64,000 bases of DNA from contig NC_086097.1 in NCBI RefSeq assembly GCF_963921235.1, positions 106,022,001 to 106,086,000 of the forward strand, read 5' to 3'. The notes under the pieces are model-generated. The model saw only the letters and a list, made by a program, of their open reading frames with translations. It did no database searches and was not told where the DNA came from. Each line of letters begins with the position of its first letter. The stretch's first letter is position 1. Both the position numbers and the translations under genes were made by a program. Positions 7,824 through 41,604 of the stretch are shown in pieces. This DNA is from Mobula hypostoma. Taxonomy: Eukaryota.

Positions 7824-7958
7824 TGTAATGTATTGTGTGAGTATTCGTAGCGTCAGAGTGTGTATGACGTCAGGACGTAGAGAAGTAAAAAATGGAAGCC
7901 TGTTGCAAAAACCTAGTTGTTCAATCTACAGCAGTGTCGGAGTCACATCAATATTACA
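7824..7958 (+). repeat. 3' LTR of the Mag-like Gypsy element
   Basis: 6-bp terminal inverted repeat TGTAAT/ATTACA directly after the PPT; AGTAAA at ~7884. Confidence 0.8.
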
Positions 7959-7959
7959 C

Positions 7960-8365
7960 CCTCGACCTGGCCAGCCTCCCTCTATAACTCAGGACTAGCC
8001 TGGCCAGCCTCCCTCTATAACTCAGGCCTAGCCTGGCCAGCCTCTCTCTATAACTCAGGCCTAGCCTGGCCAGCCTCTCTCTATAACTCAGGCCTAGCCT
8101 GGCCAGCCTCTTTCTATAACTCAGGCCCTCTAGTCCCGGCAAGCTCATTTTTTTCCCAGTACTCTTACAGTTTAACTACATATTTCCTGTAATAGCACCC
8201 AAAACTGCAGACGATATCCCAAGTACAACCTCACCAAGACTTATAAAACTACAACACAATGTCCCAACTCCTATACTCAGTGCCCCGACTGAAGGTCAGC
8301 ATGCTAATGCTTTTTGTCCCCCATTATCCTGCCTATCTGTGACGCCACATTCAATGAATCATACA
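7960..8365 (-). mobile_element. Old CR1 LINE 3' region; further degraded pieces continue to ~10170
   Basis: Minus-strand LPGLEGLSYRxRL, plus remnants of the EYRSWDxML...LVRxxLEY..QF block seen in other CR1s here. Confidence 0.7.
7967..8127. repeat. 33-bp tandem repeat (~5 copies) derived from CR1 ORF2
   Basis: Unit ctggccagcctctctctataactcaggcctagc; the minus strand encodes (GLSYRERLARL)n in frame. Confidence 0.9.
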
Positions 8366-9146: not shown

Positions 9147-9383
9147 AAACGCAAACAACAGGAATTCTGCAGATGCTGGAAATTCAAGCAACACACATCA
9201 AAATTGCTGGTGAACGCAGCAGGCCAGGCAGCATCTCTAGGAAGAGGCGCAGTCGACGTTTCAGGCCGAGACGCTTCGTCAGGACCTTCCTGACGAAGGG
9301 TCTCGGCCTGAAATGTCAACTGTATCTCTTCCTAGAGATGCTGCCTGGCCTGCTGCATTCACCAGCAACTTTGATGTGTGTTG
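9147..9383 (-). mobile_element. Fold-back (hairpin) mini-element derived from the PLE 3' end, with hammerhead motifs on both strands
   Basis: ~95-bp inverted arms (9190-9284 and 9288-9383); flanking 14-bp repeat TTAGAAATATCTAA/TTAGGAATATCTAA (9133-9146, 9384-9397). Confidence 0.85.
9250..9285 (-). ncRNA. Minimal type-I hammerhead ribozyme motif (stem II weakened)
   Basis: Minus strand: GUC-CUGACGA-A-GCGUCUCGGCCU-GAAA-CG-UC^GAC. Confidence 0.6.
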
Positions 9384-15899: not shown

Positions 15900-18800
15900 G
15901 TGGTGAGTTTCTGAAATGCATCTATTTTAATGCTAGGAGCATTGTAAGAAAGGTGGAGGAGCTTAGAACATGGATTGATACCTGGAAATATGATGTTGTA
16001 GTTATTAGTGAAACATAGTTGCAGGAGGGGTGTGATTGGCAACTAAATATTCCTGGATTTTGTTGCTTCAGGTGTGATAGAATCAGAGGGGCTAGAGGGG
16101 GAGGTGTTGCATTGCTTGTCAGAGAAAATATTACAGCAGTGCTTTGGCAGGATAAATTAGAGTACCCGTCTAGGGAGGCTATTTGGGTGGAATTGAGGAA
16201 TGGGAAAGGTGTATTATAAGGGTGTATTATTGATCACCTAATGGGGAGCAAGAGTTGGAAGAGCAAATTTTTAAGGAGATAGCAGATATTTGTAGTAAGC
16301 ACAAGGCTATGATTGTGGGAGATTTTAATTTTCCACACATTGATTGGGAAACCCATTCTGTAAAAGGGCTGGATGGTTTGGAGTTTGTAAAATGTGTGCA
16401 AGAAAGTTTTTAGCAGCAATACAAAGAGGTACCAACTCAAGAAGGGGCAGTGTTGGATCTCCTGTTAGGGAATGAGATAGGTGTCAGGTGATGGAGGTAT
16501 GTGTTGGGGAGCACTTCGGATCCAGTGATCACAATGCCATTAGATTCAATATAATTATGGAGAAGGATAGGACTGGACCCAGGGTTGAGACTTTTGATTG
16601 GAGAAAGGCTAACTTTGAGGAGATGCGAAAGGATTTAGAAGGAGCGGAGTGGGACAATTTGTTTTATGGGAAGGATGTAATTGAGAAATGGAGGTCATTT
16701 AAAGGTGAAATGTTGAGGGTACAGAATCTTTATGTTCCTGTTAGGTTGAAAGGAAAGGTTAAAAGTTTGAAAGAGCCATGGTTTTCAAGGGATATTGGAA
16801 ACTTGGTTCAGAAAAAGAGAGAGATCTACAATAAATATAGGCAACTTGGAGTAGATGTGGTGCTCGAGGAACATAAAGAATGTGAAAAGAATCTTACAAA
16901 AGAAATTAGAAAAGCTAAAAGAAGATACGAGGTTGACTTGGCAAGTAGGGTGAAAATAAATCTAAAGTGTTTTTACAGTTATACTAATAGCAAAAGGATA
17001 GCGAGGGATAAAATTGGTCCCTTAGAGAATCAGAGTGGACGGCTATGTGCAGAGCCAAAAGTGATGGGGGAGATTTTGAACAATTACTTTTCTTCAATAT
17101 TCACGAAGAAGAAGGATATTGAATTGTGTAAAGTAAGGGAAACAAGTAGGGTAGTTATGGAAACTATGATGATTAAAGAAGAGGAAGTACTGGCACTTCA
17201 AAGGAATATAAAATTGGATAAGTCTCCAGGTCCTGACAGGATATTCCTTAGAACCTTGAGGGAAGTTAGTGTGGAAGTAGCAGGGGCTCGGACAGAAATA
17301 TTTCAAATGTCATTAGAAACGGGTATGGTGCCGGAGGATTGGCGTATTGCTCATGTTGTTCCATTGTTTAAAAAGGATTCGAGTACAGGAGCAGGGAGGT
17401 ACTACTGCAGTTGTACAAGGCCTTGGTGAGACCGCACCTGGAGTATTGTGTGCAGTTTTGGTCCCCTAATCTGAGGAAAGACATCCTTGCCATAGAGGGA
17501 GTACAAAGAAGGTTCACCAGATTGATTCCTGGGTTGGCAGGACTTTCATATGAAGAAAGACTGGATGAACTGGGCTTGTACTCGTTGGAATTTAGAAGAT
17601 TGAGGGGGGATCTGATTGAAACGTATAAAATCCTAAAGGGATTGGACAGGCTAGATACAGGAAGATTGTTCCCGATGTTGGGGAAGTCCAGAACAAGGGG
17701 TCACAGTTTGAGGATAAAGGAGAAGCCTTTTAGGACCGAGATTAGGAGAAACTTCTTCACAGAGAGAGTGGTGAATCTGTGGAATTCTCTGCCACAGGAA
17801 GCAGTTGAGGCCAGTTCATTGGCTATATTTAAGAGGGAGTTAGATATGGCCCTTGTGGCTACGGGGATCAGGGGGTATGGAGGGAAGGCTGGGGCGGGGT
17901 TCTGAGTTGGGTGATCAGCCATGATCATAATAAATGGCGGTGCAGGCTCGAAGGGCCGAATGGCTGTTGTTATAAATGCCAGCATACCATTCGCCTTTTT
18001 CACCGCCAGCTGTACCTGCATGCCCACTTTCAATGACTGGTGTATAATGACACCCAGGTCTCGTTGCACCTCCCGTTTTCCTAATCAGCCACCATTCAGT
18101 TAGGAAGGAAATTAGTTAGGAAGGTTCAATCCTTAGGTATTAATATTGCAGTAGTGAAATGGATTCAGCAGTGGCTGAATGGGAGACGCCAGGGAGGAAT
18201 GGTAGATAACTGTGAGTCAGATTAGAGGCCGGTGTCTTGTGGTGTGCCTTAGGGATCTGTACCAGGTCCAATGTTGTTTGTCATATATATTAATGATCTG
18301 GATGATGGGGTGGTAAATTGGATTAGTAAGTAAGCAGATGATACTAAGATAGGTGGAGTTGTGGACAATGAAGTAGATTTTCAAAGCTTGCGGAGAGATT
18401 TAGACCACTTAGAAGAGTGGGCTGAAAGATGGCAGATGGAGTTTAATGTTGATAAATGTGAGGTGCTGCACATTTGTGAGCTGTAGGACTAATCAAAATA
18501 GGACATACATGGTAAATGGTAGGGCATTGAAGAATGCAGTAGAACAGAGGGATCTAGGAATAATGGTGCATAGTTCCCTGAAGGTGGAATCTCATGTGGA
18601 TAGGGTGGTGAAGAAAGCTTTTGGTATGCTGGCCTTTATAAATCAGAGCATTGAGTATAGGAGTTGGGATGTAATGTTGAAATTGTTCAAGGCATTGGTA
18701 AGGCCAAATTTGGAGTATTGTGTACAGTTCTGGTCACCAAATTATAGGAAAGATGTCAACAAAATTGAGAGAGTACAGAGAAGATTTACTGGAACGTTGC

Positions 18801-19183
18801 CTGGGTTTCATCTCCTAAATTACAGAGAAAGGTTGAACAAGCTGGCTCTTTATTCTTTGGAGCGTAGAAGGTTGAGGGGGGACTTGATGGAGGTATTCAA
18901 AATTATGAGAGGGATAGGTAGAGTTGACGTGGATAGGCTTTTTTTCCATTGAGAGTGGGGGAGATTCAAACAAGAGGACATGTGTTGAGAGTTAAAAGGG
19001 AAAAGTTTAGGGGTAACATGAGGGGGAACTTCTTTACTCAGAGAGTGGCAGCTGTGTGGGAACGAGCTTCCAGCAGAAGTGGTTGAGGCAGGTTCGATGT
19101 TGTTGTTTAAAGTTAAATTGGATAGCTACATGGACAGGAAGGGAATGGAGGGTTATGGGCTGAGTGCAGGTCGGTGGGACTAG
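15900..19183 (+). pseudogene. CR1 ORF2 (APE endonuclease + reverse transcriptase), disrupted
   Basis: CIYFNARSI, GGGVALLV, VGDFNFPHIDW, GSSDHNAI, SPGPD, VVPLFKK, ADDTK, LVRPNLEYCVQFWSP. Confidence 0.9.
17374..18100. mobile_element. Rearranged young CR1 piece replacing part of the host RT
   Basis: 17374-17963 is the 3' end of the 62645-64000 family in + orientation, without its tail. 17968-18100 is the adjoining upstream part, inverted. Confidence 0.8.
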
Positions 19184-20032
19184 GTGAGAGTAAGAGTTCA
19201 GCACGGACTGGAATGGCCGAGATGGCCTGCTTCAGTGCTGAAATTGCTATATGGTTATATGGTGTTCAAGTGCTCTGAAAGCTCATCCTTAATAATAGAA
19301 TCCAATATCTTTCCAACTGAAGTCAGGCTAACTGGCCTATAATTTCCTTTCTTCTGATTCCATCCCCACCCCCCCAGCCTTAAAGAGTGGAGTAGTATTT
19401 GCAATTTTCCAGTCCTCAGGAAACATTCCAGTATTTAGTGATGGTTGAAAGATCATTACTCCGCCATCTCTTCAGCTACCTCTTGCAGACCCCTGGGGTA
19501 TAGTCCATCTGGTCCAGGTAACTTATCTACCTTTAGACATTTCAGCTTCCCAAGGGCCTTTTCCCTATCAATAGCAATGATACTCACTTCTGCCCTCTGT
19601 CACTCTCACATTTCTGACTTCTGCTGGTGTCTTCCACAATGAAGACTGACACAATTCATCCCCCATTCATCCCCCATTACTACCTCTCTAGTGTCATTTT
19701 CCAGCAGTCTCACATCCACTTTTATCTCTCTCTTACTCTTTAGACACCTAAAAAAAATTTTTGCATCCTCTCTTATATTACTGGCTTGCTTTTCTTCTTT
19801 TCTCTCTTTATGGCTTTGTAGTTGCTTTCTGTTGGTTCATTAAGTTTTCACCTCTACCTTCCCACTAATTTATGCTATGTTATATGCCCTGTCTTTTGCT
19901 TTTATGTTGTCTTTGAATTCCCTTGTCAGCCAATGTTGCCCCATCATTCCTTTAGAATACTTCATCTTTGGGATAAAACTTTCCTGCACCTTCCAAATTT
20001 CCCCCAGAAACACCAGCCACTGCTTTCTGCCA

Positions 20033-22320
20033 TACTCACAACTCGTTGGAGGAACTCAGCGGGTTGGGCAGCATCTGTGGAAAAGATCGGTTGACGTTTC
20101 GGGCCAGAACCCTTCGTCAGGACTTCGTCAGAGAGAAGGGGCAGAGGCCCTATAAAGAAGGTGGGGGGAGGGTGGGAAGGAGAAGGCTGGTAGGTTCCAG
20201 ATGAGAAACCAGTAAGGGGAAAAATAAAGAGGAAGCAGGGAGGTGATAGGCAGGAAAAGTGAAGAAGGAATAGGGGAAAACTAATGGGCAGTAGAAGGAG
20301 GCGGAACCATGAGGGAGGTGATAGGCAGCTGGGGGAGGGGGCAAAGTGACATAGGGATAGAGGAAGGGAGGGGGAGGGAATTACCAGAAGTTGGAGAATT
20401 CTATGTTCATACCAAGGGGCTGGACCCTACCTAGACAGTATATGAGGTGTTGCTCCTCCAACCTGAGTTTAGCCTCATCATGGCAGTAGAGGAGGCCATG
20501 TATGGACATATTTGAATGGGAATGGGAAGCAGCGTTGAAGTGGGTAGCTACCGGGAGATCCTATCTGTTGTGGCGGACGGAGTGGAGGTGCTCGATGAAG
20601 CGGTCCCCCTATCTGCGTCCAGTTTCACCGATGTAGAGGAGGCCGCACCGGGAGCACCGGATGCAATAGATGACCTCAACAGACTCACAAGTGAAGTGTT
20701 GTCTCACCTGGAAGGACTGTTTGGGGCCCTGAATGGTTGCAAGAGATGAGGTGTAGGGACAGGTGTAGCACTTATGTTTACAGCGATAAGTGCCAGGTGG
20801 GAGATCAGTGGGGATGGACTTGCGGATAAGGGAGTCACGGAGGGACCAATCCCTGCAGAAAGCGGAGAGAGGTGGAGAGGGAAAGATGTGCTTAGTGGTG
20901 GGGTCCTGTTGAAGGTGGCAGAAGTTGTGGAGGATAATGTGCTGGATCTGGAGGCTGGCGGGGTGGTAGGTAAGGACAAGGGGAACTCTGTCCCTGTTGT
21001 AGTTGCGGGAGGATGCGGTGAGGGCCAAAGTGCAGGAAATGGAGGAGATGCGCGTGAGGGCATCATTGATGACGGTAGAAGGGAAACCATGATCCTTAAA
21101 GAAAGAGGATATTTGAGATGTCCTGGAACGGAAAGCCTCAATCTCGGAGCAGATATGACGGAGACAGAGGAACTGGGAACAGGGAATGGCATTTTTGCAT
21201 GTGATGGGGTGGGAAGAGGTATAGTTGAGGTAGTTATGAGAGTCAGTGGGCTTTGTAGAAGATGTCAGTGGACAGTCTGTCTCTAGAGATGGAGACCGAG
21301 ACATCGAGAAAGGAGAGAGAAGTGTCTGAGATACAGCAAGTGAATTTGAGGGCTGGGTGGAAGTTTGAAGTAAAATCGATGAAATCGACGAGCTCAGCAT
21401 GGGTGCAGGAAGCAGCACCAATGTAGTCGTCAATGTACCGAAGGAAAAGTTGGGGAGCAGTACCAGAACAGGTTTGGAGCACAGACTGTTCCACATAACC
21501 AGCGAAGAGGCAGGTGTAGCTGGGTCCCATGCGAGTTCCCATAGCTACACCCTTAGTCTGAAGAAGGTGGGAAGAGCCAAAAGAGAAGTTATTAAGTGTG
21601 AGAACCAGTTCCGCCAACCGGAGGAGGGTAGTGGTGGTGGGGAACTGGTGACGTCTATTATCCAGGAAGTAGCGGAGGGCTTTGAGGCCTTCTTGATGGG
21701 GAATGGAGGTGTATAAGGATTGGACATCCATAGTAAAAATGTAGCAGTTAGGACCGGGGAATTGGAAGTTATTGAAGAGGTGGAGGGCATGGGGTGTATC
21801 CCGGATGTAGGTGGGGAGGGACTGAACTATGGGTGACAAAATGGAGTCCAGGTAGGCGGATACAGGTTCGGTGGGACAGGAGCAGGCAGAAACTATGGGT
21901 CTACCGGGACAGTCAAGCTTGTGTATCTTTGGGAAGAGGTAAAACCGAGCGGTACGGGGTGTGGGAATAATGAGTTTAGCGGCTGAGGATGGAAGGTCTC
22001 CGGAGTTGATAAGGGTGGTGATGGTGCTGGAGACAATGGTTTGATGTTTTTTGGTGGGGTCCTGTTATTTTAGTAAATTTTAGTAAATCTCCTCTGTACT
22101 CTCTCAATTTTATTGACATCTTTCCTATAATTCGGTGACCAGAACTGTACATAATACTCCAAATTTGGCTTCACCAATGCCTTATACAATTTCAACATTA
22201 CATCCCAACTCCTATACTCAGTGCTCTGATTAACAAAGGCCAGCATACCAAAGGCTTTCTTCACCACCCTATCCACCTTCAGGGAACTATGCACCATTAT
22301 TCCTAGATCCCTCTGTTCTA
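20033..22320 (-). mobile_element. Chimeric element copy 1: CR1 fragment + (TTTACTAAAA)2 + Neptune-like PLE
   Basis: 22088-22320 is CR1 (...VQRRFT). 20033-22066 is PLE: RT (LPKIHK, MDVQSLYTSIP, GVAMGTRMGP, RYIDD), GIY-YIG and HHR. Confidence 0.9.
20089..20124 (-). ncRNA. Minimal hammerhead motif (stem I mismatch)
   Basis: Minus strand: AGUC-CUGACGA-A-GGGU(UCUG)GCCC-GAAA-CG-UC^AACC. Confidence 0.6.
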
Positions 22321-24987
22321 TTGGAGAGAGTTTAAACTAATTTGTCATTTGGATGGGCTGCAACTAGAGACTGGCAGATAATGTTGACATCAGAGTCGTG
22401 GCTGAAAGAAGATTATAGTTGGGAGCTTAACATCCAAAGATGCACATTGTATCAAAAGGACAGGCAAGTAGGTAGAGGTGGTGTTGTGGCTCTGTTGGGA
22501 AAAAATGAAATCAAATTCTTAGAAAAAGATGACATAGGATTGGAAGATGTAAAATCATTGTGGACAGAGTTAAGGAACTGCAAGGATAAAGAGACCCTGA
22601 TGAGAATTACATACAGTCTTCCGAACAATAGCCAGGATGTTGGCGACAAAATCAAAACCGAGATAGAGAAGGCATGTCAAAAAGGCAATGTTACGATAGT
22701 CATGGGGGATTTCAATGTGCATTGGGGAAAATCAGATTGGTGCTGAATCCCAAGAGAGGAAAGTTTTAGAATGCTTATGTGATGGCTTTTTGGAGCAGCT
22801 TGTGGTTGAGCCCACTAAGGGATCAGCTATTCAGGATTGAATGCTGTGTGATGAACTGTATTTGATTAGGGAGCTTAAGGTAACGGAGCCCTTAGGAGAC
22901 AGATTTGAAAAGGAGAAGCTAAAGTCAAATATATCTGTATTACAATGAAGTAACTGAATTATAGAGGCATGAGAGAGGAACTGGCCAACGTTGATTGGAA
23001 AGGGGCATTAGGAATGATGGCACAGCTGCAATGGATGGAGTTTTTGGGAACAATTTGGAAGTCATGGGATAGATACATCCTAGACAAGAAGTATTCTAAA
23101 GGCAGCGTGATGCACAGTGGCTAACACCAGAAGTCAAAGCCAGCATAAAAGCAAAACAGAGGGCATATAATAAAGCAAAAATTACTGAGAAGTTAGAGGT
23201 TTAGGAAACTTTTAAAAACCAACAGTAGGCAACTAAAAAGCCATAAAGGAGGAAAAGATGACATATTGATGTAAGCTAACTAACAATATCAAAGAGGATA
23301 CCAAAAGTTACTTCAGATATATAAAGAGTAAAAGAGGCAAAAGTAGATATTGGATTGCTGGAAATTGATGCTGGAGAGATAGTAATGGGGACAAGGAAAT
23401 GGCGGACAAACTGAACAAGTATTTTGCATCAGTCTTCACTGTGGAAAGCACTCGTAGTATGCCGCATGTTTGAGAGTATCAGCCGGCAGAAGTGTGTAAA
23501 GTTGCCACTACTAGGGAAAAGGTGCTTGGGAAACTGAAGGGTCTGATGTTAAATAAATCACCTGGACCCGATGCACTTCACCTCAGCGTTCTGCAAAAGG
23601 TAGCCAAAGAGATTGTGGAGGGATGAGTAATGATCTTTCAAAAATCAATATATTCTGACATAGTTCTGAAGGACTGGAAAATGGCAGCTAGCACTCTACT
23701 CTTCAAGAAGGATGGAAACAGAAGAAAGGAAATTATAGGCCAATTAGCCTGACCTCAGTTGTTGGGAGGATGTTGGAGTCGATTGTTAAGGATGTGGTTT
23801 TGACCCATTTTATTATGTGCCTCCAAGTACCCCAAAATCAGCATGGTTTCCTTCAGGGAAAATCTTGCCTAACCTATCTGTTGAAATTCTTTGAGGAAGT
23901 AACAAGCAAGATGGACAAAGGAGAATTGGTGGATGGTGTGTACCTGGATCTTTGACAAGGTGCCACACATGAGGTTGCTTTGCAAGGTAAGAGCAGGAAA
24001 GATCCTAGCGGGATTGAACATTGCCTGATTGGCAGGAGGCAGAGTACGAATAAGGGAACCTGTTTTGATTGGCTGCTGGTGAATAGTAGTGTTTTGCAGG
24101 GGTTGGTTTTGGGACCACTATTCATATTATGACAGAAATAATGGTTTTGTGGACAATACAAAGAAAGGTGCAGAGGCAGGTAGAGTTAAGGGAGAAAGGA
24201 GTCTGCAGAAGGGCTTAGACAGATTAGAAGAATGGGAAATGAAACAGCAGATGGAATATTGTGTATGCAAGTGTATGATCATGCACTTGGGTCGAAGGAA
24301 TAAAGCTATATGCTGTTTTCTGAAAAGGAGAGCAAATACAGAAATCAAAGGTGCAAGGGGACTTGGAATTCCTCATGCAGGATTCCCTGAAGGTTAACTT
24401 CCAGGTTGAGACTGGTGAGGAAGGCAAATTCAACGTTCTCATTCATTTCATGAGGACTAGAATATAAATGTAAGAAAATAATGCCGATGCTTTATAAAGT
24501 TTTGGTCCGACTGCAGAGAGGATTGTGAGAAGCTTTGGGCCCCTTATCTAAGAAAGGATGGGCTGCCATTGGAGATGGTCAAGAGGAGATTATTGAAAAT
24601 GACCCCAGGAATGAAAGGGTAATGATTAGGATCATTTGATGGCTGTGGGCTTGTCCTCGCTGAAGATTAGAAGAATGAGGGGAAAATCTCATTGAAATCT
24701 ATCGAATATTGAAAGGTCTACATTGTGCAAATGTGGAGAGGATGCTTCCTATAGTGAGGGGTTCTAGGTCCAGAGGGGAGACCCTCAGAACAGAGATGAG
24801 GAGGAATTTCTTTAGCAGAGAGCGTGGATATATTTAAAGTGGAGTTTGATAGGTTCTTGATTAATCAGGACAAAAGGTCTGGCGAGAAGGCAGGAGAATG
24901 GGGTTGACAGGCATAATAAATCAGCCATGATTGAATAGCAGAGCAGACTCAATAGACTGAATGGCTGAATTCTGCTCCCATGTCTTA
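22321..24987 (+). mobile_element. Old CR1 LINE ORF2 and 3' end, heavily decayed
   Basis: ESWL, GGVVAL, MGDFN, NYRPISLTSVVG, QHGFLQGKSCLT, DNTK; 3' UTR ends tctgctcccatgtcttatg. Confidence 0.85.
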
Positions 24988-25699
24988 TGATTTTGTCAGA
25001 CCTACTATCATGGCAAGATTTTATTCCGATTTATAGTTATAGAGTTTTACGGCAGAGAAACATACCCTTCACCCTAGCCATCAATTACCTGGCTATGCTC
25101 ATCCCATTTGCCATCATTTGGTCTGTAACCTTTTCTGCCTTTGCAATTCCAATATGTTCTAGATGTTGTGATAGTAAATGCCTCCTCCATCCATCAGGTG
25201 GTGTGTTCCAGGTCCCAACCTCCCTCTGAGTGGAAAATCATCTTCCTAAACTCTTCTATCTTGCCTTATCACTAGACCTTCTTGCTATAGATGCCTCTGC
25301 CTTGGAGAAAAGTTTCCTGCTAACCACCCCTTCATAAAATGAGTCACCTCAGATAATGTGTAACTATCAGAATGCCTTTCATCCTCCTCTATTCCAGATA
25401 AACCAAACACAACCTATTCAATCTTTATCATAACTGAAACACTATAGCCCAGGCATGCTCTCCAGTGCAACCACATCCTTCCATTAAATATGGTGAGCAG
25501 AACTGCACAGTTTAACAGCTGTGACCAAGGCAATGTTTCATAAGATTGTACTATAAATTCCTTGCTCGTATATTCTATGACTTTATTATGTTGAAATAGA
25601 GTAGATAAACAGTCAGATTAATGTTTTGGCAAAAGGGGGAAAAGAAGTCCAAGGCTCTTTATTACAGGTCTATAAACTTTTCCAAATCCAGACAACTTA

Positions 25700-25990
25700 T
25701 TCAAACTGTCCACTCTCCTCTACTACCTGATTCCTTCTTTTTTAGTCCTTTTCCTCTTTGACCTATCACCTCCAGGCTTCTCACTTCATCCCTCTCTCCA
25801 CATCCACCCATCTTCTCTTTCTCCTGTTTTCACCCTTCACCCAACAGCCTGAACTACTTCCCCACCCCCACATTCTTACTCTGGCTTCTTCCCCCTTCCT
25901 TTCCAGTCTTGAATGAAGGTTCTTGCCCCGAAACATTAGCTGCTTATTCCTGTGCATAGATGCTGCCTGACTTGCTGAACTCTTACATTC
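25700..25990 (+). mobile_element. Old PLE 3' end with degenerate hammerhead
   Basis: Polypyrimidine UTR, then cagtcttgaatgaaggttcttgccccgaaac and gatgctgcctgacttgctga. Confidence 0.6.
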
Positions 25991-25996
25991 TTACTG

Positions 25997-26532
25997 AGTT
26001 CACTCAACCTATTCTCATAATGCATGCTCCCCAATCCAGGCAACATCCTTGTAAATCTCCTCTGCACCCTTTCTATGGCTTCCACATCCTTCCTGTAGTG
26101 AAGCGACCAGAACTGAGCACAGTACTCCAAGTGGGATCTGACCAGGGTCCTATATAGCTGCAACATTACCTCTCGGCTCTTAAGCTCAATCCCATGATTG
26201 ATGAAGGCCAATACATCGTACGCCTTCTTAACCATAGAGTCAACCTGCGCAGCTGCTTTGAGCGTGCTATGGACTCAGACCCCAAGATCCTTCTGATCCT
26301 ACACAGCCAAGAATCTTACCATTAATACTATATTCTGCCATCATATTTGATCTACCAAAATGAACCACTTCACACTTATCTGGGTTGAAATCCATCTGCC
26401 ACTTTTCAGCCCAGTTTTGCATCCTATCAATGTCCCGCTATAACCTCTGACAGCCCTCCACACTATCCACAACACCTCCAACCTTTGTTTCATCAGCAAA
26501 CTTACTAACCCATCCCTCCACTTCCTCATCCG
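25997..26532 (-). mobile_element. CR1 RT fragment
   Basis: FADETK...WQMDFNPDKCEVVHFG...LVRSHLEYCAQFWS. Confidence 0.85.
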
Positions 26533-26974
26533 TTGTCCTCTAAATTTTTGTCTGTTGTCCATTGTATTATTGTCCTGTGTTTTATGCTTGGTACCAGACC
26601 ACAAACAACTCCGGTTTGTTTCACATGCTGGCAATAGAGTGATTCTAGTTCTGGTACGGATAATTTCACTCTTCACAACTCTAATTCCACAACCTACAGA
26701 TTCAATTACAAGGACTCTACAACTTATGCTTTCATTGTTATTCGTTTATATATAATTTTTTGCACAATTTGTCTCCTTTTGCACATTGGTTGCTTGTCTG
26801 TCGTTATGTATAGTTTTTAAAAAAATTAATTCTATTGTATTTCTTTATTTTCCTATAAATGCCTTCAAGAAAATGAATCTCAAGGTAGTATATGGTGTTA
26901 CACATGTACTTTGATAATAAATTTACTTTGAATTTGACCAGAAGGAGAGAAAGTGATGGGGAGATTTATTTATC

Positions 26975-29181
26975 TGGATAGGATGGTGAAGAAAGCTTTT
27001 GGTATGCTGGCCTTTATTAATCAGAGCACTGAGAATAGGAGTTGGGATGTAATGCTGAAATTGTATAAGGCATTGGTGATGCCAAATTTGGAGTATTATG
27101 TACAGTTCTGGTCACCAAGTTATAGGAAAGATGTCATTAAAATTCAGAGGGCACAGAGGAGATTTACCAAAATTTACTAAAATTTACTAAACTTCATTAC
27201 TAAAATGTACTAAAATTTACTAAATTCACTAAAATGTACTAAAGTAACAGGACCCCACCAAAAAACATCAAACCATTGTCTCCCGCACCATCACCGCCCT
27301 TATCAACTCCGGAGACCTTCCATCCTCAGCCACTAAATTCATTATTCCCACAACCCGTACCACTCGGTTTTACCACCTCCCAAAGATACACAAGCCTGAC
27401 TGTCCCGGTAGACCCATAGTTTCTGCCTGCTCCTGTCCCACTGAATGTGTATCTGCCTACCTGGACTCCATTTTGTCACCTATAGTTCAGTCCCTCCCCA
27501 CCAGTTCAGGCATTTATAGGAAAATAAAGAAATACAATAGAATTAATTTTTTTAAAAACTATACATAACGACAGACAAGCAACCAATGTGCAAAAGGAGA
27601 CAAATTGTGCAAAAAATTATATATAAACGAATACACCCCATGCCCTCCACCTCTTCAATAACTTCCAGTTCCCCGGTCCCGACCACTACATTTTCACTAT
27701 GGATGTCCAATCCTTATACACTTCCTTTCCCCATCAAGAAGACCTCAAAGCCCTGCGCTACTTTCTGGATAATAGACCTCACCACCACTACCCTCCTGTG
27801 GTTGGCGGAACTGGTTCTCACACTTAATAACTTCTCTTTTGGCTCTTCCCACTTTCTTCAGACTAAGGGTGTAGCTATGGGAACTCGCATGGGACCCAGC
27901 TACACCCACCTCTTTGTTGGTTATGTGGAACAGTCTGTGCTCCAAACCTATTCTGGTACTGCTCCCCAACTTTTCCTTCGATACATTGACGACTACATTG
28001 GTGCTGCTTCCTGCACCCATGCTGAACTCATCAATTTAAAACTTCAAACTTCCACCCAGCCCTCAAATTCACTTGCTCTATCTCGGACACTTCTCACCCT
28101 TTCTCAATGTCTCGGTCTACATCTCTGGAGACAGACTGTCCACTGACATCTTCTACAAGCCCACTGACTCTCATAACTACCTCAACTATACCTCTTCCCA
28201 CCCCACAACATGCAAAAATGCTATTCCCTATTCCCAGTTCCTTCGTCTCTGCCCCATCCTCCGGCAACCACAACAGGGACGGAGTTCCCCTTGTCCTTAC
28301 CTACAACCCCACCAGCCTCCAGATCCAGCACATTATCCTCCACAACTTCTGCCACTTTCAACAGGACCCCACCACTAAGCACATCTTTCCCTCTCCATCC
28401 CTTTCCGCTTTCTGCAGGGATCGGTCCCTCCGCGACTCCCTTATCCACATGTCCATCCCCACTGATCTCCCACCCGGCACTTATCCCTGTAAGCGTAAGT
28501 CCTTACACCTGTCCTTACACCTCATCTCTTGCAACCATTCAGGACCCCAAACAGTCCTTCCAGGTGAGACAACACTTCACTTGTGAGTCCGTTGAGGTCA
28601 TCTATTGCATCCGGTGCTCCCGGTGCGGCCTCATCTACATCGATGAAACCCGACGCAGATTGGGGGACTGCTTCATCGAGCACCTCCACTCCATCGGCCA
28701 CAACAGACAGGATCTCCTGGTAGCCACCCACTTCAACTCTGCCTCCCATTCCCATTCAGATATGTCCCTACTGCCATGATGAGGCTAAACTCAGGTTGGA
28801 GGAGCAACACCTCATATACCGTCTAGGTAGTCTCCAGCCCCTTGGTATGAACATAGAATTCTCCAACTTCCAGTAATTCCCTCCCCCTCCCTTCCTCGCT
28901 ATCCCTATTTCACTCTACCCCCTCCCCCAGCTCCCTCATGGTTCCGCCTCCTTCTTCTACTACCCATTGTTTTCAGGGCTATGACGTCAATGCTTCCCCT
29001 CCCCCACCCCTTTGTCTTTCAAATTACTGGTCTTTCAACTGAAGCCACAAGCATTCTTCAAATCCTTCCCCATCTTTCATTCTTCAGTCCTGACGAAGGG
29101 TTCCGGCCTGAAACGTCGACTCATTGTTTCTAACTGATGCTGCCCGACCTGCTGAGTTCATCCAGTGTACTGAAAGTGTTG
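26975..29181 (+). mobile_element. Chimeric element copy 2: CR1 fragment + (TTTACTAAAA)~8 + Neptune-like PLE
   Basis: 26975-27165 is CR1 (...QRRFT), 27163-27243 is the repeat, and the PLE starts at AACAGGACCCCACC, the same junction as copy 1. Has internal deletions and an HHR at the 3' end. Confidence 0.9.
29086..29121 (+). ncRNA. Minimal hammerhead ribozyme motif, best-preserved stem I
   Basis: AGUC-CUGACGA-A-GGGU(UCCG)GCCU-GAAA-CG-UC^GACU; 4-bp stem I AGUC/GACU. Confidence 0.75.
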
Positions 29182-29199
29182 ACTATATTAAGGCAGCAA

Positions 29200-29800
29200 G
29201 AGTCCATAGAGGGGAGGTTGGTTCCTGTGATACACTGATCAGTTGCAGTACCAAGTTATTATTCACCCAGATAGAATGTTTTCTCGGGCGCATTGATAAA
29301 AACATTAGTCAGATTTCTTTAGCCTCCTGAGTTGTAGACTCACCGGTCCGGTGAGCATCCTTGGCCAGGACATCAACATAGTGGATGACATCATAGTTGG
29401 CCATTACATCAACATAGTTGGACCAGGACAGACTATTGGTGAAGTTCACACCTATGAACTTGAAACACTCAACTCTTCTCAACCTCAATAGTTGATGTAG
29501 ACATGCACATGTGTACCACTTCACTTTCTAAAGTCAATGATTTGATTTGTTGATATTGCAGGAAAGACTGTTGCTATGATACCATGTCGCTAAGCTCTTT
29601 ACCTCCTTCCTGTACTTCGATTTGTCATTATTTGAGATGCGGCCCACTACGTGGTATCATCTGCAAACTTTCAGATAGAGTTCGAGCAGAATCTAGGCCA
29701 CTCAGAGTAGAGTTGGAGACTGAGGATGCAATCTTGTGGAGAATAATCACGGTGGAGATGTTACTGCCTGTCCTTACAGATTGCAGTCTGTTGGTCAGAA
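29200..29800 (-). mobile_element. Old Rex1/Babar RT fragment
   Basis: NRLQSVRTGSNIS, KFADDTT (aagtttgcagatgatacc), RVECFKFIGV...LSWS. Confidence 0.7.
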
Positions 29801-34027: not shown

Positions 34028-34949
34028 TGTCATGCTTCATCCCGAGCAGTTGTGAGTCAGAGAACTCTCTGATCTATGGGACGTATATTCAGAACATTAT
34101 ATTCAGATATTACCCAGACTAGATGAACCTGGCTGGGCTTTGACTCTGACTAGTTATTCTTCAGGTACTTAACTCAGAGTCTTCTATAATAGTCCTTCTC
34201 TGGAGGTACTGTACTTGATCATTCAGTGAGGCAACTTATTTTATAATTTCGGAGACACTGCTTTGATTTTATGGCAAGTTGGATGACTATAAATTCATTA
34301 TTTGTATGTGCTTGTTTCCTTAATTTCTTCAAACTGCTGCTGACTCCCATAATCACCTGAGCCACCTGGTTAGCAGTTATTGGAGTGCTCTTTATGCCTT
34401 AACAACGTATCAGATTGTCACTGCTACACAGGATCTTAAAGTTCAAAGTATATTTATTATCAAAGTATGTATACATTGTACAAACTTGAGATTTGTCTCC
34501 TCACAGACAGCCACAAAACAAAGAAACCCAAAAGAACCATTAAAAAGAGACTGCCCAGCACCCAGTAAGCAGAGAGGAAAAAAACAAATTGTGCAAAAAT
34601 AAAAGCAAGCACATGGCATTCAGAACTGAAGTCCACGAAAGAGAGTCTGTCCACAGACATGAAGCCACAGCCTCAGTTTAATGCAGAGCCAAGTAAACGT
34701 TACACAGCAGCGAGCTGAACCAGCCCATCCCACGGCTCTGGCCCCAACAACCTGACCCTTTCAATCCGGCCTGGCAATTAAATTGTCCAAACCTCAGGTC
34801 GTTCCTCACTCTTGGACCCAGGCTCTGTTGCTTTGATATGGTCTGGGGTCTGGGCCCTGCCTCTTCGACTTAGCCTGTACATGAAATTTCCAATTCAACC
34901 CAGCAGTTAAATTGATTGAACTCCGATCTTTTCTCACAATCTGGGACTC

Positions 34950-35725
34950 TGTCCTGCCTTTGCTCACCTCAACTCTGCCCTGCCCCTGCTCACCTCAACT
35001 CTGCCCTGCTCTGCTCACCTCAACTCTGTCCTGCCTCTGCTCGCCTCAACTCTGCCCTGCTCTGCTCGCCTCAACTCTGCCCTGCCCCTGATCACTTCAG
35101 CTCTGCCCTTCCTCTGCTCGCCTCAACTCTGCCCTGCTCTGCTCACCTCAACTCTGCCCTGCCTCTGCTCGCCTCAACTCTGTCCTGCTCTGCTCGCCTC
35201 AACTCTGCCCTGCCCCTGATCACTTCAGCTCTGCCCTTCCTCTGCTCACCTCAACTCTGTCCTGCCTCTGCTCGCCTCAACTCTGCCCTGCTCTGCTCAC
35301 CTCAACTCTGTCCTGCCTCTGCTCGCCTCAACTCTGCCCTGCCCCTGATCACTTCAGCTCTGCCCTTCCTCTGCTCACCTCAACTCTGCCCTGCCCCTGC
35401 TCGCCTCAACTCTGCCCTGCTCTGCTCACCTCAACTCTGTCCTGCCTCTGCTCACCTCAACTCTGCCCAGCCCCTAATCACTTCAGCTCTGCCCTTCCTC
35501 TGCTCACCCCAACTTTGCCCTGCTCTGCTCACCTCAACTCTGCCCAGCCTCTGCTCGCCTCAACTCTGCCCTGCCCCTGCTCGCCTCAACTCTGCCCAGC
35601 CTCTGCTCGCCTCAACTCTACCCAGCCTCTGCTCGCCTCAACTCTGCCCTGCCCCTGCTCGCCTCAACTCTACCCAGCCTCTGCTCGCCTCCACTCACTT
35701 CAACTCTGCCTCACCTTGCCTCGGT
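34950..35725. repeat. Pyrimidine-rich minisatellite, 25/26-bp unit with a 128-129-bp higher-order period
   Basis: Unit ctctgctc(a/g)cctcaactctgccctg; the variant unit containing atcacttcag recurs at ~35091, 35219, 35348 and 35477. Confidence 0.95.
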
Positions 35726-37660
35726 TCTGCTGCATCAAATTGCCTCCCAGTCCAAAGGGAAGTTACAGGCTCTTGTTTGTGGTGATTGTTTACCAGAAAG
35801 TGTTATTAGTAAAGTATTTAGTTGTTTTTTTCATTTTGTTTGCAGCTGATAAGTAGTTGCTGAGTTTCACCAGCATTATCTTAAACGGGAAACTCCAGGA
35901 GAGTGGGAAGTTCAGAGGATTGTAAAGTTGTCTCCACTGTGCTCCCATGCCGTCACTATCCAGATGTCCAAGTGCCAATGTGACCGCCCTTCACACCTCA
36001 TTATTTCATGCTGACTGGGTGTATTATTTCCAATTCTCTTTCTCTTTCGGCTGCTCCCAATATTGTTTAGTTTTCTCCTATGGCAGTGCTTCCTGTTGGT
36101 CATGGCCTCAGCACTGAGATCACCCCATTATGATGTGTTGGTAGACTATTGAATCAAATTTTTCCACTTTCAGTGAGAAGAGTTTAAAGGAGACAGCTTT
36201 ATAGAATGGGTGACAGCATAGAGGGAGACAGAGTAGGAGGGCTTTGGCTCAAGGGGGCTTCGGCGATAATGGGTAGAGGTGAGATACGTTACTTGTGTAG
36301 AATACAGACAGGAAGTATGTGTATGAGGCCAGTTTTCTGTGCTTGGTGTCAGATGAGGGAAGTTCTGGAGACTCCCAACCTTCCGGATGGCCACATCTGC
36401 ACCAGGTGCGTTCAGCTGCAGCTCCTTAGGGACCAGGTTAAGGACCTGGAGATGCAGCTTGATGACCTTTGTCTGGTCAGGGAGAGTGAGGAGGTGATAG
36501 AGAGGTACACCAGGGCCTCGGGAGACAGATGTGAGTAACAGTCAGGAGAGGGAAGGGCAAGAGGCAGATGCTAGAGAATATCCCTGTGGCTGCCCCCCTT
36601 AACAGTAAGTACTCCTGTTTGAATACTGTTGGAGGGGATGGCCTACCTGTGGGGAAGCAACAGTGGCTGACCCAGTGGCTCAGAACGGTAGGAAAAGGAA
36701 GAGGATGGCAGCAGTGATAGGGGACTCTATAGTTACGGGGTCAGACAGCTGATTCTGTAGACACAGGAAAGAAACACAGATGGTAGCTTGCCCCCCAGGT
36801 GCCAGGGTCCAGGATGTTTCTGATCAAATCCACGATATCCTGAAGTGGGAAGGAGAACAACCAAAGGTTGTGATACATAATGGTACCAACAACATTGGTA
36901 GTAAAAGGGATGAGGTCCTGAAAACAGACTACAGGGAGTTAGGAATGTAGTTGAGAAGCAGGATCTCAAAAGTAGTAATCTTGGGATTACTGCCTGTGCC
37001 ACGTGGCAGTGAATATAGGAATAGAATGAGGTGGAAGATAAATGCGTGGCTGAGGGATTGGAGCAGGGGGCAGGGATTCAGATTTCTGGATCATTGGGAC
37101 TTCCTTTGGGGCAGGTGTGACCTGTACAAAAAGGACAGGTTGCATTTGAATCTGAGGGAGATCAAAATCCTGGTGGGGAGGTTTGCTAAGGCTATTGGGG
37201 AGAATTTAAACTAGAATTGCCAGAGGGGTGGGAACCAAACTGAAGAGACGGAGGAAGGAGTGGTTGGCTCACAAATAGAGAAAGCTTGTAGACAGTGCGA
37301 GAGGGAGGATAGGCAGGTGATAGAGAAGGGACGTGCTGGTTTGAGATGTGTCTATTAATGCAAGGAGTATTATGAACAAAGAGCTTAGAGCATGGATCAG
37401 TACTTCAAACTATATTTCAGATAGGATAGGGAGGGAGGCAAAAGAGGTGGGGGCGTAGCACTGTTGATCATGGATGCAGAGAAGGTGGACGTCATGGAGG
37501 GATTGTCTATGGAGTCTCTGTGGGTGGAAGTTAGGAACAGAAAAGGGTCAATAACTCAACTGGGTGATTTTTATGGACCACTCAATAGTAATAGGGACAT
37601 CGAGGAGCAGATAAGGAGACAGATTCTGGAAAGGTGTCATAATAACAGGTGTAATAATCC

Positions 37661-39629
37661 TGCACCATCACCACCCTTATCAACTCCAGAGACCTTCCAT
37701 CCTCAGCCACTAAACTCATAACTCCCACACCCTGTACCGCTCAGTTTTACCTCCTCCCCAAGATCCACAATCCTGACTGTCCCGGTAGACCCATAGTTTC
37801 TGCCTGCTCCTCTCCCACCGAACTTGTATCTGCCTACCTGGACTTCATTTTGTCACCCATAGTTCAGTCCCTCCCCACCTACATCCGGGATACACCCCAT
37901 GCCCTCCACCTCTTCAATAACTTCCAGTTCCTCGGTCCCAACCGCTTCATTTTCACTTTGGATGTCCAATCCCTATACACCTCCATTCCCCATCAAGAAG
38001 GCCTCAAAGCCCTGCGTTACTTTCTGGATAATAGACCTCACCAGTTCCCCACCACCACTACCCTCCCCCAGTTGGCGGAACTGGTTCTCACACTCAATAA
38101 CTTCTCTTTTGGCTCTTCCCACTTTCTTCAGACTAAGGGTGTAGCTATGAGAACTCGCATGGGCCCTAGCTATGCCTGCCTCTTCGTTGGTTATGTGGAA
38201 CAGTCTGTGCTCCAAACCTATTCTGGTACTGCTCCCCAACTTTTCCTTTGGTACATTGATGACTACATTGGTGCTGCTTCCTGCACCCATGCTGAGCTCG
38301 TCAATTTCATTGAATTTACTTCTAACTTCCACCCAGCCCTCAAATTCACTTGGTCTATCTCGGACACTTCTCTCCCCTTTCTCAATCTCTCGGTCTACAT
38401 CTCTGGAGACAGAATGTCCACTGACATCTTCTATGAGCCCACTGACCTCAACTATACCTCTTCCCACCCCGCCACATGCAAAAATGCCATTCCCTATTCC
38501 CAGTTCCTCCATCTCCACCGCACCTGCTCCGAGGATGAGGTTTTCCGTTCCAGGACATCTCAAATGTCCTCTTTCATTAAGGATCGTGGTTTCCCTTCTG
38601 CCCTCACCCGCATCTCCTCCATTTCCCGCACTTCGGCTCTCACCCCATCCTCCCACCACCACAACAAGGACAAAGTTCCCCTTGTGCTTACCTACCACCC
38701 CACCAGCCTCCGGATCCAGCACATTATCCTCCGCAACTTCCGCCACCTTCAACAGGTCCCCACCACTAATCACATCTTTCCCTCTCCACTCCTCTCTGCT
38801 TTCCACAGGGATCGGTCCCTCTGTGACTCCCTGGTCCACACGTCCCTCCCCACGGATCTCCCACTCGGCACTTATCCCTGTAAGCGTAAGTGCTACACCT
38901 GTCCCTACACCTCCTCTCTTGCCACCATTCTGGGACCCAAACAGTCCTTCCAAGTGAGGCAACACTTCACTTGTGAGTCTGTTGGGGTCATCTATTGCAT
39001 CCAGTACTCCCGGTGTGGCCTCCTCTACATCGGTGACACCTGATGCAGATTGGGGGACCGCTTTGTCGAGCACCTCCACTCCGTCTGCCACATCAGACAG
39101 GATCTCCCAGTAGCTACCCATTCAGATATGTCCATACATGGCCTCCTCTACTGCTATGATGAGGCTAAACTCAGGCTGGAGGAGCAACGCCTCATATACC
39201 GTCTAGGTAGACTCCAGCCCCTTGGTATGAACATAGAATTCTCCAACTTCCGGTAATTCCCTCCCCATCCCTTCCTCTATCCCTCTGCCCCCTCCCCCAG
39301 CTGCCTATCACCTCCCTCATGGTTCCGCCTCCTTCTACTACCCATTGTGTTTTCCCCTATTCCTCCTTCACCTTTCCTACCTATCACCTCCCTGCTTTCC
39401 TTCTCCCACCCCTTTATCTTTCCCCTTACTGGTTTTTCACCTGGAACTTACCAGCCTTCTCCTTCCCACCCTCCCCCCACCTTCTTTATAGGGCCTCTGC
39501 CCCTTCCCTCTACAGTCCTGCCCAACACGTCGACTGATCTTTTCCACGGATGCTGCCCGACCTGCTGAGTTCCTCCAGCGTGTTGTGAGTGTTGCTTTGA
39601 CCCCAGCATCTGCAGAGTATTTTGTGTTA
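37661..39629 (+). mobile_element. Neptune-like PLE, 5'-truncated, inserted in CR1 ORF2
   Basis: TSD ATAATAACAGG (37639-37649, 39630-39640); full tail. The HHR core is deleted (cagtcctgcccaacacgtcgactg, ~39513-39536). Confidence 0.92.
37850..39043 (+). CDS. PLE reverse transcriptase + start of GIY-YIG endonuclease (partial, premature stop)
   Basis: 397-codon open frame: YIRDT, LDVQSLYTSIP, GVAMRTRMGPSYA, YIDDYI, PFLNL, GTYPCKRKCYTCP, VIYCIQYSRCGLLYIGDT. Confidence 0.8.
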   Translation: MSPIVQSLPTYIRDTPHALHLFNNFQFLGPNRFIFTLDVQSLYTSIPHQEGLKALRYFLDNRPHQFPTTTTLPQLAELVLTLNNFSFGSSHFLQTKGVAMRTRMGPSYACLFVGYVEQSVLQTYSGTAPQLFLWYIDDYIGAASCTHAELVNFIEFTSNFHPALKFTWSISDTSLPFLNLSVYISGDRMSTDIFYEPTDLNYTSSHPATCKNAIPYSQFLHLHRTCSEDEVFRSRTSQMSSFIKDRGFPSALTRISSISRTSALTPSSHHHNKDKVPLVLTYHPTSLRIQHIILRNFRHLQQVPTTNHIFPSPLLSAFHRDRSLCDSLVHTSLPTDLPLGTYPCKRKCYTCPYTSSLATILGPKQSFQVRQHFTCESVGVIYCIQYSRCGLLYIGDT

Positions 39630-41604
39630 ATAATAACAGGGTTGTCATGTTGGGAGATTTTAATTTCCCAAATATTGATTGGCATCTCCCGAGAGTGAGG
39701 GGTTTAGATGGGGTGGAGTTCGTTAGGTGTGTTCAGGAAGATTTCTTGACACAATATGTAGATAAGAGGAGAGGCTGTACTTGATCTGGTATTGGGAAAT
39801 GAACCTGGTCAGGTGTCAGATCTCTCAGTGGGAGAGCATTTTGGAGATAGTGATCACAATTCTATCTCCTTTACCATTTCATTGGAGAGGGATAGGAACA
39901 GACAAGTTTGGAAAGCATTTAATTGGAGTAAGGGGAAATATGAGGCTATCAGGCAGGAACTTGGAAGCATAAATTGGGAACAGATTTTCTCAGGAAAATG
40001 TACGGAAATTTGACAAATGTTCAGGGGATATTTGCATGGAGTTCTGCATAGGTATGTTTCAATGAGACAGGGAAAGGATGGTAGGGTACAGAAACCATGG
40101 TGTACGAAGGCTGTTGTAAATCTAGTCAAGAAGAAAAGAAGAGCTTACCAAAGGTTCAGAAAGCTAGGTAATGATAGCAAGCTAGAAGATTATAAGGCTA
40201 GCAGGAAGGAGCTCAAGAAAGAAATTTGGAGAGCCAGAGGGGGCGGTGAGAAGGCCTTGGTGAACAGGATTAAGGAAAACCCCAAGGCATTCTACAAGTA
40301 TGTGAAGAGCAAGAGGATAAGACGTGAGAGAATAGGATCTATCAAGTGTGACAGTGGGAAAGTGTGTATGGAGCCGGAGGAGATAGCAGAGGTACTTAAT
40401 GAGTACTTTGCTTCAGTATTCACTACGGAAAAGGATCTTGGCGATTGTAGGGATGACTTTCAGTGGACTGAAAAGCTTGAGCATATAGACATAAAGAAAG
40501 AGGATGTACTGGAGCTTTTGGAAAGCATCAAGTTGGATAAGTTATCCGGATCTGATGAAATGTACCCCAGGCTATCGTGGGAGGCGAGGGAGGAAATTGT
40601 TGAGCTTCTGGTGATGAACTTTGCATCATTAATGGGAATGGGAGATGCTCCAGAGGATTGGAGGGTTGCGGATGTTGTTCGCTTATTCAAGAAAGGGAGT
40701 AGAGATAGCCCAAGGAAATCATAGACCGGTGAGTCTTACTTCGGTGTCTGGTAAGTTGATGGAAAAGAGCCTCAAAGGCAGGATTGGTGAACATTTGGAG
40801 AGACATAACAGTCAGCATGGCTTTGTCAAAGGCAGGTCATGCCTTACAAGCCTGATTGATTTTTTTGAGGATGTGACTAAACACATTGATGAAGGTAGAA
40901 CAGTAGATCTAGTGTATATGGATTTCAGCAAGGCATTTGATAAGGCATCCCATGCTAGGTTTATTGAGAAAGTAAAGAAGCATGGGACCCAAGGGGACCT
41001 TGCTTTGTGGATCTAGAATTGGCTTGCCCACAGAAGGCAAAGAGTGGTTGTAGACAGGTCATATTCTGCATGGAGGTCTGCCTCAGGGATCTGTTCTGGG
41101 ACCCCTACTCTTCGAGATTTTTACAAATGGTCTGGATGAGGAAGTGGAGGGATGGATTAGTAAATTTGCTGATGACACAAGAGTTGTGGATAGTGTGGAG
41201 GTCTGTCAGAGGTTATAGCAGGACATTCATAGGATGCAAAACTGGGCAGAGAATTGGCAGATGGAGTTCAACCCAGGTAAGTGTGAGGTGGTTCATTTTG
41301 GTAGGTCAAATATGATGGCAGAATATAGTATTAATGGTAAGACTCTTGGCAGTATGGAGGATCAGAGGGATCTTGGAGTCAGAGTCCATAGGGAACTCAA
41401 AGCTGGTACGCAGGTTGACTCTGTGGTTAAGAAGGCATATGGTGCATTGGCCTTCATCAATCGTGGGATTGAGTTTAAGAGCCGAGAAGTAATGTTGCAG
41501 CTCTCTAGGACCCTGGTCAGATCCCACTTGGAGTACTGTGCTCAGTTCTGGTCACCTCACTACAGGAAAGATGTGTAAACCATGGAAAGGGTGCAGAGGA
41601 GATT

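Follow-up and report, generated by a model that had tools for sequence, protein, structure and literature searches.

A CR1–Penelope chimera of single origin in the ray Mobula hypostoma, most likely duplicated locally

In a 64,000-nucleotide (nt) stretch of the genome of the ray Mobula hypostoma (contig NC_086097.1, positions 106,022,001 to 106,086,000; hereafter the window), a piece of a CR1-type long interspersed nuclear element (LINE) is joined through a short filler to a Neptune-like Penelope-like element (PLE). This CR1/filler/PLE junction is common to two copies lying in opposite orientation and 4.7 kb apart, copy 1 (22323 to 20034, minus strand) and copy 2 (26975 to 29181, plus strand), and in both it fixes together parts of unrelated elements. 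The chimera had a single origin and was most likely duplicated locally. The explanation that we favour, holding it with about as much doubt as confidence, is that copy 2 was made by a new Penelope insertion about 9 kb from copy 1, which switched template and copied about 2 kb of that neighbour together with its flank.

One junction in two copies

Copy 1 is made up of a 5'-truncated CR1-type piece of open reading frame (ORF) 2 (22082..22323, minus strand), of a filler that tandemly repeats the last ~10 nt of the CR1 target (TTTACTAAAA; 22067..22081, minus), and of a 5'-truncated PLE with a tailless 3' end (20034..22066, minus), classified from its reverse transcriptase (RT), its cysteine linker and a GIY-YIG-like end. 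In copy 2, the CR1 piece (26975..27168, plus strand) is a subset of that of copy 1, starting at the equivalent of position 22275. It is followed by an expanded and mutated array of the same 10-nt unit (27169..27245, plus), by a PLE body (27246..28969, plus; stop codon at 28874-28876) and by a 3' untranslated region (3'-UTR) of another PLE subfamily, also with a tailless end (28970..29181, plus; hammerhead-like motif at 29090-29117). The filler counts two units in copy 1 vs. eight varied units in copy 2, and its first unit is the CR1's own sequence. Both PLEs are dead: the frame of copy 1 is broken by a 1-nt insertion and by stops (stop codon at 20383-20381), and the body of copy 2 carries five private deletions of 11, 7, 1, 140, and 14 nt.

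The original prediction on this DNA, that two chimeras share one junction, is confirmed: a junction pattern allowing up to three mismatches matched at exactly these two places in the window, with 0.03 matches expected and none of 100 shuffles reaching two. It had also placed the CR1 piece in the same family as the stretch 18540-18790, and rightly so. Indeed, the neighbour CR1 (18217..19260, plus), which runs uninterrupted over the junction site, differs within 18597-18790 from copy 1 at 12 of 194 sites and from copy 2 at 18 of 194. The label CR1 is provisional and follows from a motif characteristic of this type; the ORF of the neighbour gave no Pfam match. The shared piece has an open frame (...YVQFWSP...QRRFT), which ends as ...QRRFTKIY* in both copies, and a stop stands ahead of the PLE frame (QDPT...). 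The two frames are therefore not fused, in agreement with the original prediction, and a fused CR1-PLE protein was rejected on these stops and on the absence of CR1 motifs from all 120 PLE homologs of 150-478 amino acids, the only length range searched. The CR1 does not resume past either PLE 3' end, again as predicted: its 3' remainder was missing after both copies, and no high-identity match to it was found in the rest of the window. Nor is there a target duplication at copies 1 and 2, where the longest words shared by the flanks are of 4 nt each (11 nt at copy 3).

Copy 3 is an independent insertion of the same PLE family, with neither CR1 piece nor filler (37658..39628, plus), bounded by an 11-nt target duplication and ending in a 38-nt tail. 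Within 37639-39640, it lies inside a CR1 endonuclease region, begins at its 5' end with 8 nt of target-like filler, and has lost sequence across the hammerhead motif.

Between copies 1 and 2, 92 of 1430 PLE sites differ, as do 13 of 194 CR1 sites, about 6.5% in both parts, and this near-equal divergence means that the two parts split together. Each is more distant from copy 3 (118 and 126 of 1430 PLE sites) than from the other, and the private PLE changes number 39 and 47. Four public sequencing runs, from apparently related species (best word share 0.51), provided contigs that were placed on 21917-22366. The shared CR1 piece belongs to an abundant family in these runs, with a summed depth of roughly 70,000-160,000 times that of a single copy, and at positions 22152 and 22221, where the two copies share an allele, 91-99% of the family depth reads otherwise in all four runs. 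The PLE part carries shared damage as well. In 40 codons copies 1 and 2 agree against copy 3, and when these were scored by us against the majority of 120 PLE homologs, 9 were shared departures, 24 were departures of copy 3, and 7 were unclear. A184T and W243C stand out most clearly: residue 184 is A in 107 of 118 homologs, and residue 243 is W in 70 of 99, with C outside its top three residues. Changes of the CpG-decay type number 5 shared vs. 14 in copy 3 (70 sites). Polarisation by a 73%-identical PLE of the window, noisier than the protein test, gave 16 shared, 19 copy-3, and 5 other changes among the 40. Some of the shared differences are PLE subfamily markers; one of these, site 21969, is split about half and half in run X1. 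At that site, the copy-3 allele holds 48% of the depth in X1, 7% in X3, and more than 99% in X9.

The rare CR1 alleles and the PLE damage held in common thus lead us to conclude that copies 1 and 2 descend from one dead genomic copy, and the earlier claim of a single source locus, a PLE within a CR1, is upheld. To judge from these sequence differences, decay of the ancestor in the genome preceded its copying and lasted about one third of the time over which copy 3 has decayed. The same rare alleles and damage led us to reject independent insertions at a hot spot, and the presence of A184T and W243C in both copies disfavours a single event from an active master.

The 3'-UTR of copy 1 is of the copy-3 type (7 of 105 sites differ), vs. 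that of copy 2, which departs from copy 1 at 42 of 105 sites starting at 28970, so that the prediction of a 3' end taken from another subfamily holds for copy 2. The related statement that the sequence between stop and ribozyme differs needs trimming: it is correct from 28970 on, and the copies are alike for ~90 nt past the stop. The point at which copy 2 passes from one subfamily to the other would fall between about 28700 and 28969.

Routes to the second copy

The original prediction explained the pair as members of a composite family, and this is not supported. The junction is seen at two sites of the window, 4.7 kb apart, and no contig bridging it appears among the 32 pieces listed of 31,253 from the relatives' runs, a weak test because bridging contigs of two high-copy repeats would be short. 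Four listed pieces reach 22066, and all go on with 12-90 unmatched letters that are not filler, as we read the record coordinates. No listed piece from these runs matches the locus exactly, and none of the 8 listed pieces of one run presumed to be RNA spans the junction. A scan of metagenome contigs for the exact junction gave no match either, a result of no weight because no control placed this host among the sources of those contigs. At the PLE edge, the summed depth is about 1030 (X1), 1190 (X3), and 120 (X9) times the estimated single-copy depth; this is no measure of copy number and serves here to set an approximate upper limit, about 1,000 copies. If 1,000 copies, all of them taken to be composites, were placed at random in an assumed 3-Gb genome, a second one would fall within 5 kb with a chance of ~0.003, and with 100 copies this becomes 0.0003; over the 275 windows scanned, 0.01 and 0.0001 such pairs are expected, respectively. 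Finding the junction at two sites so close together, against so low a chance, favours a local origin, and proximity is the main argument for it.

A dispersed, non-autonomous family, in which a dead CR1-PLE source was transcribed and mobilised in trans by PLE proteins with exchange of 3'-UTRs, is thus an unlikely explanation, even if several observations suit it. The 3' termini of both copies are PLE-like and their hammerhead-like motifs are intact, the flanks do not align, the 5' points coincide, and a dead ancestor suits a non-autonomous master. PLE termini are, moreover, able to move unrelated sequence in trans (PMC3846280). However, thousands of copies would be needed to yield a pair 4.7 kb apart, vs. 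the rough ceiling of about 1,000 in the relatives; the four listed pieces that reach 22066 lack the filler and none of the 32 bridges; and the copies are not framed by target duplications. It also seems doubtful that the dead PLE-in-CR1 was the master of a hybrid with a fixed 5' end in the CR1 ORF, trans-mobilised and swapping ribozyme-bearing 3' ends by template switching. Were the junction dispersed after all, it would represent a LINE-Penelope composite family without a description in the literature searched. No CR1-PLE composite family was found in that literature, which was searched by title and start of abstract, with Repbase, subscription papers, and supplements outside its scope.

The original prediction set a dispersed family against a local inverted duplication, and named aligned outer flanks, or an assembly artefact, as what would speak against the family. 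The outer flanks do not align, and a third route, copying of a neighbour by template switching, had been missed. For this route, copy 1 fits what a donor requires: its CR1 piece is longer, its 3'-UTR is of the copy-3 type, and the shared part of copy 2 is nested inside it.

The surroundings of copy 1 also bear on how the chimera was formed. Its 3' end adjoins an old CR1-type piece without its 5' part (19278..20033, minus), and its 5' end adjoins another, likewise without its 5' part, on the opposite strand (22318..23800, plus), the 5' join showing 3-6 nt of microhomology (22318-22323) with this older LINE. The piece at 22318-23800 is only 71.5% identical to 19278-20023, and the two are therefore different LINE copies. 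Copy 1 is thus flanked by unrelated old LINEs on opposite strands, both 5'-incomplete and without target duplication, so that a target deletion is needed under any model. Such a deletion can account for the lost remainder of the CR1, and the argument built on its failure to resume is weakened accordingly.

On its right, copy 2 borders an old LINE of the PF09004-bearing, non-CR1 type (29182..29685, minus), broken in its C-terminal region at the 3' end of the copy. The left flank (26939..26974, minus) is the probable continuation of this LINE, with a 2-nt TG overlap at both junctions: these 36 nt score on the next positions of the LINE profile in the right orientation, a result reached by 16 of 300 shuffles and by 1 of 300 random pieces of the window. 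Copy 2 probably splits one old LINE, by this profile match; if so, its flanks join and it was inserted whole, overlapping them by 2 nt and leaving no target duplication.

The following course of events would account for these features. The first step would be the insertion of a Neptune-like PLE in a short copy of CR1; the PLE 5' end would have been joined with slippage, repeating the last 10 target bases, and the DNA from the 5' join to the priming nick would have been deleted, taking the rest of the CR1. The PLE-in-CR1 copy then decayed for a time, as the shared alleles show. Later, the RNA of a sister PLE subfamily would have primed reverse transcription in the old LINE at 29181 and, after 200-500 nt, the complementary DNA (cDNA) would have paired with the DNA of copy 1, or with a read-through transcript of it, extending through ORF and filler and over 194 nt of CR1 before being rejoined at 26974 by a 2-nt microhomology without duplication. 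Finally, the copies would have drifted ~6.5% apart and the filler would have changed in length, and a later repair would have pasted into copy 2 the 126-nt inverted patch that is observed there. Copy 2 has four features compatible with a templated insertion, namely a retro-type 3' end, a switch within homology, a nearby donor, and a microhomology 5' join; the putative donor is assigned from its proximity, and the empty site is suggested by the profile match. The template may have been either the DNA of copy 1 or a transcript through copy 1.

The inverted patch (27503..27633, plus) consists of a 5-nt filler, which echoes nearby PLE sequence, and of a 126-nt exact inverted copy (126 of 126 identical); it replaces ~10 nt of the PLE. 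Its donor is the 3'-UTR of another LINE-derived repeat, 643 nt upstream (26739..26864, plus). The original prediction mentions neither this patch nor the 140-nt deletion in copy 2, nor does it mention copy 3. Since a patch of this length would stay free of differences with a chance of 0.0002 at 6.4% divergence, it is later than the duplication or has been homogenised since. It looks like a recent repair event, and it shows that local inverted copying occurs at this locus.

The main rival explanation invokes such repair-type copying. In this scenario, to which we give about half the credence of the template-switching insertion, no RNA was involved: a short PLE 3' stub of the other subfamily stood at the second site, and a broken end there, or a fork that had stalled, would have invaded copy 1 through homeology, been extended through the junction, and returned by microhomology. 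The closeness of the copies, their nesting, the decay that they share, and the mosaic nature of the 3' end are explained equally well, and the patch shows repair-type inverted copying in this very place. However, no older PLE 5' remnant or target duplication is seen left of copy 2. The flanks of copy 2 probably join with a 2-nt overlap, which would demand that the older junction was removed exactly, and copy 3 does retain its 11-nt duplication.

Several observations weigh against copying by a template-switching insertion. In the CR1 piece of copy 1, 12 nt have been deleted between a pair of GTGGA words, at roughly 22271-22276, and the start of copy 2, equivalent to 22275, falls inside this GTGGA microhomology. 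The statement in the original prediction that the copies have different 5' truncation points is thus true of the starts as such, with this coincidence to be added. Moreover, 18540-18588 of the neighbour CR1 is identical at 49 of 49 positions to 22272-22320 of copy 1 (p about 0.04). Together, these facts fit a 5' end fixed in a third source and shared by both copies, unless the deletion arose during copying. The deletion may either be a scar at the point of the donor at which copying ended or reflect a fixed third-source 5' end common to both copies. Compared by eye, the bases left of the join of copy 2 match the undeleted CR1 at 5 of 7 positions vs. the deleted one at 3 of 7, which hints faintly at a template still undeleted at the time of copying. 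Private changes in the CR1 part number 9 in copy 2 vs. 3 in copy 1, an excess too small to fix the direction of copying. At the DNA level, continuity of the flanks of copy 2 relative to a homolog in the window was not significant (p 0.27), and this continuity is only suggestive. The contigs of the relatives make a weak test, coming apparently from related species, from 32 of 31,253 pieces, and from depth that is not copy number. Copy 3, of the same family and 8.5 kb away, means that local density may exceed the average used in the chance calculation. Finally, by analogy with the L1 element, whose templated insertions are typically shorter than 250 bp and copied from no more than 15 bp from the site, 2 kb copied from ~9 kb away would be out of the usual range.

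Because of the coincidence of the 5' start and the 49-nt identity, the readings that invoke a distant source, taken together, keep the standing of a minor possibility. Beside the dispersed family, they comprise a single concerted event, quite unlikely in our estimate, in which a single dead source at a distance yielded two cDNAs that began at a common 5' end, placed at two nicks ~9 kb apart; the extra 5' bases of copy 1 would then have been patched from the neighbour CR1, and copy 2 would have begun on the RNA of the other subfamily. It explains why the copies lie close together, why their branches are of equal length (39 and 47 private changes), why they have a 5' point in common, and why copy 1 matches the neighbour CR1 at 49 of 49 positions, and an anole PLE was described to cleave and extend both strands, with a predicted dimer (PMC11167929). 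However, it requires an unseen source, a fixed transcript start within the CR1 ORF, and an RNA switch, as well as an out-of-register patch despite 194 nt of in-register homology, and the block shows neither a surrounding duplication nor inversion seams.

An assembly artefact or a simple inverted segmental duplication is very improbable. The region is rich in repeats, and the exact 126-nt patch, considered by itself, could be a chimera of sequencing reads, but 6.4% of sites differ between the copies, which are set apart also by several indels, by filler length, and by 3'-UTR, and neither their inner nor their outer flanks align. A segmental duplication was rejected for this last reason. Two further structures were also rejected: the whole block as one cargo insertion with outward arms, because no target duplication surrounds it, and an inversion bridged by PLEs, because no matching words were found at the seams and the outer flanks are LINEs of different types.

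The Penelope-like element and the rest of the window

The RT of the PLE matches the Pfam family RVT_1 (E 1.8e-7) and gave 573 homologs from 1453 candidates, the closest homolog of the PLE frame being from Mobula hypostoma itself (75% identity over 99% of the query). The CX2-5CxxC linker reads CKHKCYTC in copy 1, CKRKCYTC in copy 3, and CKRKSYTC in copy 2. A GIY-YIG-like C-terminal end (VIYCIRC...LLYIGET) appears in read-through, and two stop-truncated frames gave no Pfam match to it or to any other family. Core boxes of a hammerhead are present in copies 1 and 2 and deleted in copy 3. In copy 1, the minimal-hammerhead-like motif (CTGACGA...GAAAC.TC) lies at 20093..20120 (minus strand). These PLE 3' motifs were recognised by comparison with the hammerhead consensus. 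The motifs gave no Rfam match at the gathering score, and the ribozyme folds were no better than those of shuffles (z -0.48 for copy 1; -0.36 and 0.18 for the others). Of the 15 PLE-type 3' ends in the window, 6 are tailed, and most of the rest, copies 1 and 2 among them, in our reading stop 10-17 nt beyond the conserved box that comes last; the position of its 3' end thus speaks for copy 2 as an insertion.

In the literature, the CX2-5CxxC linker marks Neptune and Nematis PLEs (PMC8557442), the tail of 30-40 nt and the target duplication are both optional (PMC8557442, PMC11167929), and in the anole PLE the optional tail is set by two start sites of the RT (PMC11167929). From its RT, linker, and GIY-YIG-like end, the element of the chimera may be called Neptune-like.

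Other PLE sequences were noticed. Two head-to-head pairs of short PLE 3' ends, at 9206-9366 and 56183-56317, each combine one tailed and one tailless arm. Ray gene models that bear host-gene names (P0042, P0053, and P0066) match the PLE RT with 68-83% identity over 59-73% of the query, which suggests PLE pieces inside annotated isoforms.

The window as a whole is a repeat-dense stretch of a cartilaginous-fish genome. At 17374-18102, a young CR1-type copy, 95-96% identical to 62681-63403, consists of two opposite pieces (17374-17964 and 17971-18102), an arrangement that looks like a 5' inversion by twin priming. Tandem arrays occur at 34850-35698 (units of ~26 nt) and, in shorter form, at 5329-5622 (mixed units) and 7933-8130 (33-nt unit).

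Comparison with known systems

If copy 2 did arise by template switching during a new insertion, a Penelope cDNA is able to abandon its RNA and to take over kilobases of an old homologous copy, along with the flank of that copy, from a distance of several kb. Subfamily mosaics and local duplications in fish genomes rich in Penelope elements could then arise in this way. The case also carries a caution, in that two copies with one junction need not imply a family. It concerns a single locus, made up of dead repeats, and events of this kind have already been published for L1.

Among composite elements, SVA and LAVA resemble the chimera in that pieces of unrelated repeats were moved as a unit; they differ in being present in many copies, two neighbouring copies being known here. 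Closer in element type are the Neptune PLEs (PMC8557442), with which the chimera has in common the RT, the CX2-5CxxC linker, an apparent GIY-YIG-like region, 5' truncation, the optional 30-40-nt tail (here in copy 3), and inverted arms facing outward. However, the inverted arms described for Neptune are adjacent parts of one insertion, whereas here they are 4.7 kb apart, carry a foreign junction, and have no common duplication. The mobilisation of foreign DNA by Penelope elements in Adineta vaga (PMC3846280) is alike in that PLE ends carry such DNA and in that template jumps were proposed; that study also describes one PLE insertion in a LINE, joined by microhomology and with no duplication. 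There the cargo lies between pLTRs inside a target duplication, whereas here it is the 5' flank of a dead copy, unframed and without duplication.

The remaining parallels come from L1. Target-site deletions without duplication were described for L1 retrotransposition (PMC10760644) and resemble the situation at copy 1, which is 5'-truncated, lacks a duplication, and would have lost target DNA; such deletions are described there for L1 and would here apply to a PLE. The nearest likeness to the origin favoured for copy 2 is the templated insertion of L1, for which the cDNA was proposed to pair with nearby homologous DNA (10.1101/2024.08.27.596794). In both cases a retro-insertion would leave its RNA, duplicate a local segment, and yield a chimeric product. 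The L1 events typically involve less than 250 bp from within 15 bp, whereas the event considered here would be that of a PLE, in the germline and old, with ~2 kb copied over ~9 kb.

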